Below are positions 61,420 to 64,000 of a stretch of DNA of 64,000 bases, piece by piece. This DNA is from Escherichia coli O127:H6 str. E2348/69 (GTDB taxonomy: Bacteria > Pseudomonadota > Gammaproteobacteria > Enterobacterales > Enterobacteriaceae): NCBI RefSeq assembly GCF_000026545.1, contig NC_011601.1. One strand, 5' to 3'. The stretch's first letter is position 1. Each line of letters begins with the position of its first letter. The notes beneath the pieces are model-generated. The model saw only the letters and a list, made by a program, of their open reading frames with translations, made no database searches and was not told the DNA's origin. A program made the position numbers and the translations under genes.

Positions 61420-61423
61420 GTTT

Positions 61424-61449
61424 AGCCGGATAATGCATTGGATCCGGCT
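61424..61449. terminator. Hairpin between convergent malT and rtcA
   Basis: agccggat-aatgcattgg-atccggct (8-bp stem), 5 nt after the malT stop. Confidence 0.5.
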
Positions 61450-61461
61450 TACATCTTTATA

Positions 61462-62481
<1,020 letters not shown>

Positions 62482-63708
62482 TTATCCTTTTACGCACACC
62501 ACCTGACGCAGGGTATAGATAACTTCCACCAGATCGCTTTGTGCCGCCATCACCGCATCAATATCTTTATACGCCATCGGGATTTCGTCGATCACTTCGG
62601 CATCTTTACGGCATTCCACATGCGCGGTGGCACGAATTTGATCTTCCACGCTGAACAGTTTTTTCGCTTTAGTACGGCTCATTACCCGCCCGGCACCGTG
62701 GCTGCACGAACAGAACGACTCTTCATTTCCCAGCCCACGGACAATAAAGCTTTTCGCCCCCATCGAACCGGGAATAATTCCATATTGACCAGCACGCGCA
62801 GACACCGCGCCTTTACGCGTCACATAGATCTCTTCGCTAAAGTGCTGTTCTTTTTGCACATAGTTGTGGTGACAGTTGATCTCTTCCATCGCCAGCGTTT
62901 GTGGCTGTCTTACCGTTTTCTGCGTAACGCTCTGCAACGCCGTTACCACGTTTTCCATCATCGCATCGCGGTTAAGGCTGGCAAAAAGCTGCGCCCAGGC
63001 CACCGCTTTCAGGTAATCGTCAAAATATTCCGTACCTTCCATAAAGTACGCCAGGTCACGCGATGGCAACGTTTCAAGTGTTTCCTGCATCTCTTTTTGC
63101 GCCAGATCGATAAAGTAAGTCCCGATGGCATTACCAATTCCGCGTGAACCGGAGTGCAGCATAATCCACACCTGATCCGACTCATCAAGGCAAATTTCAA
63201 TAAAGTGGTTACCCGTTCCCAGCGTTCCCAGGTGTTTATAGTTATTGGTATTAAGGAAACGCGGATATTTTTGCGTTAACCACTGATAACCGGCTTCAAG
63301 CTCAGCCCATTTCGCATCGACGTTAACAGGCGGTTTTTCCCATGCGCCTTTATCACGTTTACAACGGCCTGTGGTACGCCCATGCGGCACGGCAGCTTCA
63401 ATCGCCTGACGCAGCTCCGCCAGGTTTTCAGGCAGGTCAGCCGCCGTTAACGCGGTACGCAGCGCGTTCATTCCACAACCGATATCTACCCCCACCGCCG
63501 CCGGAATAATCGCTCCTTTGGTTGGGATCACGCTACCAATGGTGGAACCTTTACCCAGATGTACATCAGGCATTACCGCAATATGTTTGAAAATAAACGG
63601 CATCTTCGCCGTATTTATCAGTTGCTGACGCGCATCGTCTTCTACCGGTACGCCTTTGGTCCACATTTTTACCGGGACATTTTCAGTGGTCAGTAATTCG
63701 TAATTCAT
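62482..63708 (-). CDS. rtcB: RNA-splicing ligase RtcB, 408 aa
   Basis: ORF 62482..63708 (-), 408 aa (MNYELLTTENVPVKMWTKGVPVEDDARQQL...). Confidence 0.95.
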   Translation of the reverse strand: MNYELLTTENVPVKMWTKGVPVEDDARQQLINTAKMPFIFKHIAVMPDVHLGKGSTIGSVIPTKGAIIPAAVGVDIGCGMNALRTALTAADLPENLAELRQAIEAAVPHGRTTGRCKRDKGAWEKPPVNVDAKWAELEAGYQWLTQKYPRFLNTNNYKHLGTLGTGNHFIEICLDESDQVWIMLHSGSRGIGNAIGTYFIDLAQKEMQETLETLPSRDLAYFMEGTEYFDDYLKAVAWAQLFASLNRDAMMENVVTALQSVTQKTVRQPQTLAMEEINCHHNYVQKEQHFSEEIYVTRKGAVSARAGQYGIIPGSMGAKSFIVRGLGNEESFCSCSHGAGRVMSRTKAKKLFSVEDQIRATAHVECRKDAEVIDEIPMAYKDIDAVMAAQSDLVEVIYTLRQVVCVKG

Positions 63709-63744
63709 TTTATTTTTCTCTTTTCGTTGTTTGCTGTCCAGATA

Positions 63745-63761
63745 ATTGCAACCGTCGTGCC
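63745..63761 (-). promoter_or_regulatory. Sigma-54 (-24/-12) promoter of rtcBA
   Basis: The minus strand reads TGGCACgacggTTGCA, a perfect match to TGGCAC-N5-TTGCA, 37-53 nt upstream of the rtcB ATG. Confidence 0.85.
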
Positions 63762-63896
63762 AGAAAATTAAATGAGTAGATTAATTTTTTAATTCATTGT
63801 TTTTAAATAGATAAAATCTTTACGTCCGTAAACGGAGATTTCCCACAAAGCCAATTTTCCGATAATGAAATATCGTCTTTTATAAGGATATCTAAG

Positions 63897-64000
63897 ATGC
63901 GTAAAACAGTGGCTTTTGGCTTTGTCGGCACCGTACTGGATTATGCCGGGCGCGGCAGTCAGCGATGGTCGAAATGGCGTCCGTCACTCTGTCTATGCCA
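63897..64000 (+). CDS. rtcR: Sigma-54-dependent activator RtcR, N-terminal fragment (continues beyond window end)
   Basis: ATG 63897 gives MRKTVAFGFVGTVLDYAGRGSQRWSKWRPSL...; divergent from rtcBA. Confidence 0.85.
   Translation, partial: MRKTVAFGFVGTVLDYAGRGSQRWSKWRPSLCLC

Follow-up and report, generated by a model that had tools for sequence, protein, structure and literature searches.

Does the region between the divergent genes rtcB and rtcR of enteropathogenic Escherichia coli E2348/69 carry a true sigma-54 promoter, does that promoter serve a complete RNA-repair operon, and which upstream sequences might connect it with the activator RtcR? These questions were addressed in the window, a stretch of 64,000 nucleotides in which positions 63709-63896 correspond exactly to the 188-bp rtcB-rtcR intergenic region. 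The DNA shows 100% identity to strain E2348/69 (EPEC O127:H6), whose annotated genes at this locus are malT, rtcA, rtcB, rtcR and glpR. The element in question is almost certainly the known sigma-54-dependent promoter rtcBp of the rtcBA RNA-repair operon, here in E2348/69. This promoter is already known and represents ordinary textbook biology; the modest novelty of the present analysis is limited to a motif proposed as enhancer and to the overlap that it may have with signals for rtcR expression.

Alignment of 14 enterobacterial sequences divides the intergenic region into three constrained blocks separated by variable sequence: one adjoining the rtcR start, one at the -24/-12 element and one at the ribosome-binding region of rtcB. 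When 63300-64000 was compared with Rfam under a permissive E-value, no RNA family was returned, and a search for intergenic repeats detected only short A/T-rich repeats, the palindromes described below having been spotted by eye. The promoter and the sequences flanking it comprise the following features:

63747-63762, minus strand: sigma-54 -24/-12 core promoter of rtcBA (rtcBp), TGGCACGACGGTTGCA, recognised by its consensus match and its identity with K-12
63761-63760 and 63749-63748, minus strand: GG doublet and GC doublet, in canonical spacing with exactly 10 bp between them
63736, minus strand: predicted transcription start (+1 = C63736, with A63737-C63736 as -1/+1), 19 bp downstream of the motif centre at 63755
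63709-63735, minus strand: 5' untranslated leader of rtcB as read from the sequence, 28 nt when +1 is counted
63722-63717, minus strand: Shine-Dalgarno-like sequence AAGAGA within the rtcB leader
63708-63706, minus strand: rtcB ATG
63897-63899, plus strand: rtcR ATG

On the minus strand, the core occurs in the context ...TTTTC TGGCACGACGGTTGCA ATTATC... and agrees with TGGCACG-N4-TTGCW at all 12 specified positions. A first-pass annotation of this DNA had quoted the motif correctly on the minus strand, but the coordinates given there (63745-63761) were 1-2 bp off the true ones. It had also described the motif as a perfect -24/-12 element and proposed a scan for RpoN sites, and the scan upheld this description. 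When both strands of the 64 kb window were searched with TGGCACGNNNNTTGCW, rtcBp was the sole match with zero mismatches, where 0.05 such sites per window are expected by chance and at least one was found in 4 of 100 shuffles. With one mismatch allowed, six matches were obtained compared with 3.5 +/- 2.1 expected, which places the other five sites at chance level; none of the five is among the published sigma-54 ChIP-seq sites. "Perfect" in this context denotes a match to the classical consensus and not promoter strength.

The motif is oriented toward rtcB, as the earlier placement of the element for this gene had implied. The start point in E2348/69 is predicted from the rule of PMC4591121, in which +1 is set at a fixed 19 bp from the motif centre, and lies 28 nt from the rtcB ATG, a distance equal to that of the K-12 entry. 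The dinucleotide A63737-C63736 also agrees with the ApC primer used at -1/+1 of native PrtcBA (Kotta-Loizou et al. 2022). Further downstream, the block CAACGrAAA...GrGA of the rtcB leader is conserved over the 14 enterobacterial sequences.

Evidence for the activity of this promoter comes from published work on its counterparts. The window 17-mer CTGGCACGACGGTTGCA is identical to the rtcB promoter of E. coli K-12, reported as site OS35, which lies upstream of b3421 (rtcB) in minus-strand orientation (Bonocora et al. 2015; PMC4591121, Table 1). OS35 has a ChIP-seq fold-above-threshold (FAT) value of 17 and a mid-range PSSM score of 11.16; its predicted start is separated by 28 bp from the start of the gene, and it bears the flag "C", meaning experimentally confirmed in EcoCyc (PMC4591121). 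Transcription of rtcBA by the RtcR-activated sigma-54 polymerase is attributed to Genschik et al. 1998 by the papers that cite that study for RtcR/sigma-54 control (Kotta-Loizou et al. 2022; Engl et al. 2016; Hughes et al. 2020). In the same three papers, the N-terminal CARF domain of RtcR is described as inhibitory, and RtcR deprived of this domain as constitutively active. Published candidates for the RtcR signal include tRNA fragments ending in 2',3'-cyclic phosphate, as well as contacts with RtcA and RtcB. For the Salmonella homologue, TGGCACGCTGGTTGCAAT, both sigma-54 binding and sigma-54-dependent expression were documented (71-fold by microarray, together with reporter assays). The reading of the locus as subject to RtcR-activated expression, already put forward in the first-pass annotation, is thus supported by the identical K-12 ChIP-seq site and by published work; for E2348/69, occupancy by sigma-54 and control through RtcR and sigma-54 are predicted from what the literature documents in K-12 and Salmonella. 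The native K-12 promoter was called very weak in vitro by Kotta-Loizou et al. 2022, who for this reason swapped in the nifH core. Given this weakness and the mid-range K-12 PSSM score, a perfect consensus match should not be equated with a strong promoter.

Besides the 17-mer, K-12 rtcBp shares with its E2348/69 counterpart the 28-nt distance, the divergent rtcR, the IHF-like site and the candidate enhancer. The two strains differ in that their 188-bp intergenic regions are ca. 94% and not 100% identical, that the SNPs at 63740 and 63712 are private to E2348/69, and that the encoded proteins diverge by 1.7-3.6%. The rsr-yrlBA-rtcBA promoter of Salmonella Typhimurium (STM3521) has the same -24/-12 core, a divergent rtcR and a sigma-54 dependence demonstrated in Salmonella, but its spacer is different, and under its control rsr (Ro60) and Y RNAs precede rtcBA, whereas the E. 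coli promoter drives only rtcBA. As in Salmonella, the RtcR-controlled promoter of Intestinirhabdus and Superficieibacter drives a Ro60/Rsr-like gene followed by YrlA Y-RNA-like arrays (360-674 in locus L007 and 343-716 in locus L025). In Accumulibacter and one Pseudomonas, tRNA-like genes occur ca. 120-350 nt downstream of the promoter (1781-1853 in L009; 2065-2210 in L010), one of them with an abnormal anticodon loop.

The promoter is highly conserved within the species and recurs well beyond it. Among the 4850 E. coli genomes having the locus, 4054 carry an identical promoter 31-mer and another 792 differ by one SNP. In four genomes of this second class that were inspected, the same SNP was found in the upstream flank outside the core, changing TTTAATTTT to TTTGATTTT. 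A core mutation had been considered as an explanation for the 792-genome class and was rejected on these four of four cases. Rare core variants do occur in E. coli, with TGGTACG in TUM2330 and TGGCGCG in AF16. The -24/-12 core is unchanged in 13 of the 14 aligned enterobacterial sequences and is conserved in Intestinirhabdus and Superficieibacter. The comparison was extended to 25 RtcR loci of other species, covering Escherichia, Intestinirhabdus, Superficieibacter, Iodobacter, Accumulibacter, Pseudomonas, Verrucomicrobia and Desulfobacterota; one locus had too little upstream sequence and was left out of the motif test. A divergent -24/-12 motif was present 127-176 bp from the rtcR start in ca. 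20 of the 24 testable loci, and the loci bearing it were drawn from Beta- and Gammaproteobacteria, Verrucomicrobia and Desulfobacterota.

Whether the operon behind this promoter is complete was assessed on the genes themselves:

62482-63708, minus strand: rtcB, RNA 3'-phosphate/2',3'-cyclic phosphate ligase, 408 aa, intact by ORF, Pfam and annotation
61462-62478, minus strand: rtcA, RNA 3'-terminal phosphate cyclase, 338 aa, intact by ORF, Pfam and annotation
63897-64000, plus strand: 5' end of rtcR, first 34 codons (MRKTVAFGFVGTVLDY...), the gene running past the window end

RtcB matches PF01139 over positions 1-426 of 426 (E 2.9e-133), is 98.3% identical to K-12 RtcB and retains the catalytic His337. 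The start of rtcA lies a few bases past the rtcB stop codon, and its product has full-length matches to PF01137 and PF05189, 96.4% identity to K-12 RtcA and the catalytic His308. In the source genome, RtcR measures 532 aa and carries a GAFTGA motif in addition to the RtcR/CARF domain (PF06956) and the sigma-54 interaction domain (PF00158); Pfam gave no separate detection of its C-terminal DNA-binding domain. The Rtc locus is complete in E2348/69, with rtcB, rtcA and rtcR all intact, and rpoN is also annotated as intact in the same genome. The first-pass annotation had deduced completeness from the promoter motif. Its statement that the locus is complete stands by these separate gene checks; the motif alone does not prove it, and rtcR is cut after 34 codons in the window. 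At the other end of the operon, rtcA and malT are convergent and separated by a gap of only 42 bp (61420-61461). A consensus terminator scan of this gap found none, and the sole terminator-like match nearby is at 61361-61347, on the minus strand within malT.

Completeness is a real distinction, as roughly a tenth of complete E. coli genomes lack the locus through deletion and others have a frameshifted rtcR. A 3.25 kb deletion extending from inside rtcA to inside rtcR occurs in ca. 575 of 5426 complete genomes (ca. 10%); rtcB and the promoter region are lost entirely, rtcA and rtcR in part. Two annotated gene fragments remain after this deletion, as illustrated by E. coli S1-IND-01-B (L029, 2064-2850, corresponding to window positions from ca. 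61900 to beyond 64000). In SF-468 (L039) and AF20 (L041), rtcR is annotated as a frameshifted pseudogene and the promoter core is intact, while in LB858871 (L003) an IS1-mediated rearrangement splits rtcB. The rtc genes of E2348/69 have 93.7-96.0% DNA identity to K-12 (L002), compared with 98.9% for the neighbouring glpG, and at least 99% identity across the rtc locus was found only in E2348/69-derived records. The rtc region looks unusually polymorphic within the species.

Against this background, several other accounts of the promoter and of its operon were weighed. That the rtcBp motif arose as a chance match might be argued from the one-mismatch matches, which stand at chance level in the window (6 versus 3.5 expected), but this account is vanishingly improbable. 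A perfect match is expected only 0.05 times per window, and the one observed has the intergenic location, the strand and the distance that an rtcB promoter requires; in K-12, sigma-54 binds the identical sequence, which is on record as experimentally confirmed; and the motif is conserved beside rtcR across phyla and nearly invariant in ca. 4850 E. coli genomes. On the strength of the published occupancy data and this conservation, we consider a chance motif excluded. Another account would accept the promoter and hold that the system it serves is decaying or non-functional in E2348/69, a condition shared by a considerable minority of E. coli. The 3.25 kb deletion, the frameshifted rtcR of SF-468 and AF20 and the single IS1 rearrangement provide precedents, and the E2348/69 allele is unusually divergent from that of most E. 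coli. We nevertheless regard this as highly unlikely: three full-length genes with complete Pfam domains retain their catalytic and GAFTGA residues, the promoter core, candidate enhancer and IHF-like site are as in K-12, and rpoN is intact, so that a decayed locus is excluded for E2348/69 by its intact genes.

Little more can be said for additional, RtcR-independent transcription of rtcB from a strain-specific sigma-70 promoter, TGGACA-17-AAAAAT (63740-63712, minus strand), which we also hold to be very improbable. This site matches the consensus at 9 of 12 positions, and T63740 and T63712, the two SNPs that create it, are private to E2348/69 among 14 aligned sequences. When the intergenic region was scanned for sigma-70 elements and terminators, however, this single sigma-70-like site was returned, at chance level and with nothing else, shuffled sequences giving 1.0 +/- 1.1 such matches; its -10 hexamer AAAAAT is poor, and the implied start, ca. 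63705, would be within or beyond the rtcB ATG. Such a start would yield no translatable rtcB message, and the site was judged non-functional.

For the sequences upstream of rtcBp, PMC9650030 mentions an "rtc IHF binding site" and a "UAS" without giving a sequence, and a literature search combining RtcR with IHF or UAS returned nothing further and no UAS sequence in the accessible papers; no RtcR enhancer sequence was found published in the papers that could be searched. The first-pass annotation had suggested a search of 63780-63890 for IHF and RtcR sites, and candidates of both kinds emerged:

63790-63802, minus strand: IHF-like site AAACAATGAATTA, a 12/13 match to WATCAANNNNTTR centred at -60, proposed from the consensus and from its position across loci
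63860-63875: candidate RtcR enhancer core, the palindrome CGATA-ATGAAA-TATCG (CGATA-N6-TATCG), with its centre at ca. -131, proposed from conservation and phasing
63881-63892: distal degenerate half-sites TATA (63881-63884) and GATATC (63887-63892), in 10-bp register with the palindrome

Iodobacter, Accumulibacter and three Pseudomonas loci have perfect matches to the IHF consensus on the same strand with their centres at -61/-62, and Superficieibacter has one, again on the same strand, at -50, each with a chance probability of at most 0.003. The E. coli site has a probability of 0.029 at the given position and strand; its significance depends on position and strand only, given that an IHF-like site with no more than one mismatch arises somewhere in the spacer in 31% of cases by chance (0.31). 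We thus infer a candidate IHF site at 63790-63802 whose position is conserved across loci.

The upstream block that is conserved best is marked by the tetranucleotides GATA and TATC. In the 14 enterobacterial sequences, ATTATCG is invariant and GATA nearly so, while the adjoining spacer diverges; the distal half-sites overlap the rtcR ribosome-binding site AGGA (63885-63888), in a block conserved in Escherichia. Pseudomonas, Accumulibacter, Iodobacter and Verrucomicrobia have GATA-N6-TATC or TATC-N6-GATA at the corresponding position; in the Desulfobacterota loci the pattern is indistinct. Across loci, 16 GATA/TATC pairs were counted at -130 to -165, compared with 2.9 +/- 1.8 in shuffles, statistics that are optimistic because the shuffle test was run on the very loci in which the pattern had been noticed by eye. 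When 4-mers were counted without bias in 15 non-redundant loci, GATA/TATC was the most enriched abundant 4-mer of the -180 to -113 zone (35 versus 9 in the larger spacer), and the spacings between its copies peak at 10, 20 and 30 bp. On the basis of this cross-locus enrichment and 10-bp phasing, the GATA/TATC half-sites at 63860-63892 are proposed as the candidate RtcR enhancer. The broader proposal, according to which the RtcR enhancer is a 10-bp-phased GATA/TATC array shared from Gamma- and Betaproteobacteria to Verrucomicrobia and, in E. coli, overlapping the rtcR ribosome-binding site and a possible -10 element, is advanced tentatively, as a possibility that we consider rather doubtful as a whole. 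The possible -10 element is GATAAT (63861-63866), a 5/6 match to the sigma-70 -10 element within the palindrome proposed to bind RtcR; a good -35 element to go with it was not found. The presence of GATAAT within the palindrome and of the AGGA Shine-Dalgarno sequence among the half-sites suggests possible autoregulation of rtcR.

The same spacer offers a different palindrome, TCCGT-AA-ACGGA (63825-63836, centre ca. -95), which could be the RtcR enhancer in place of the GATA/TATC array. Its 5-bp arms are perfect in E2348/69, and it is conserved in Escherichia species. It is nonetheless imperfect in K-12 (TCCGG/ACGGA), absent in Intestinirhabdus and Superficieibacter, where RtcR is 81-83% identical, and without counterpart in more distant loci. 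Conservation confined to Escherichia and imperfection in K-12 make it an unlikely enhancer, well behind the GATA/TATC array in our estimation.

With the GATA/TATC half-sites as the enhancer, the control region is proposed to operate as follows. Sigma-54 RNA polymerase would bind the -24 GG and -12 GC elements of the core (63747-63762, minus strand) as a closed complex that does not open by itself. The divergently encoded RtcR, a CARF sensor joined to an AAA+ domain with GAFTGA and a C-terminal DNA-binding domain, would bind the upstream enhancer, placed on the half-sites at 63860-63892, ca. 130 bp upstream of +1 and over 100 bp further upstream than the -24/-12 element. Bending of the DNA by an IHF-type site with its centre at -60 (63790-63802) would bring RtcR to the polymerase, and ATP hydrolysis by RtcR, acting through the GAFTGA motif of its AAA+ domain, would open the promoter. 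Transcription of rtcB and rtcA together would then begin at ca. C63736, 28 nt before the rtcB ATG. The CARF domain would hold RtcR off until an RNA-damage signal relieves the inhibition. The proposed layout resembles that of IHF-assisted, enhancer-dependent sigma-54 promoters such as nifH, glnHp2 and pspA, with the activator bound at a distance of over 100 bp upstream, a site of the IHF type close to -60, a -24/-12 element and an AAA+ GAFTGA activator. It differs from them in the sensor of RtcR, which is a CARF-type fold for RNA-damage signals and not a two-component receiver or small-molecule domain.

For the RNA-repair operon of EPEC E2348/69, this analysis confirms a characterised sigma-54 control region and intact genes, and its new content is small. 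One modest new lead comes from the candidate RtcR binding motif together with the IHF site, whose position is conserved; both could guide work on how RNA-damage signals are converted into transcription. Should the overlap of the array with the rtcR expression signals prove true, enhancer-bound RtcR would activate rtcBA while limiting its own synthesis.
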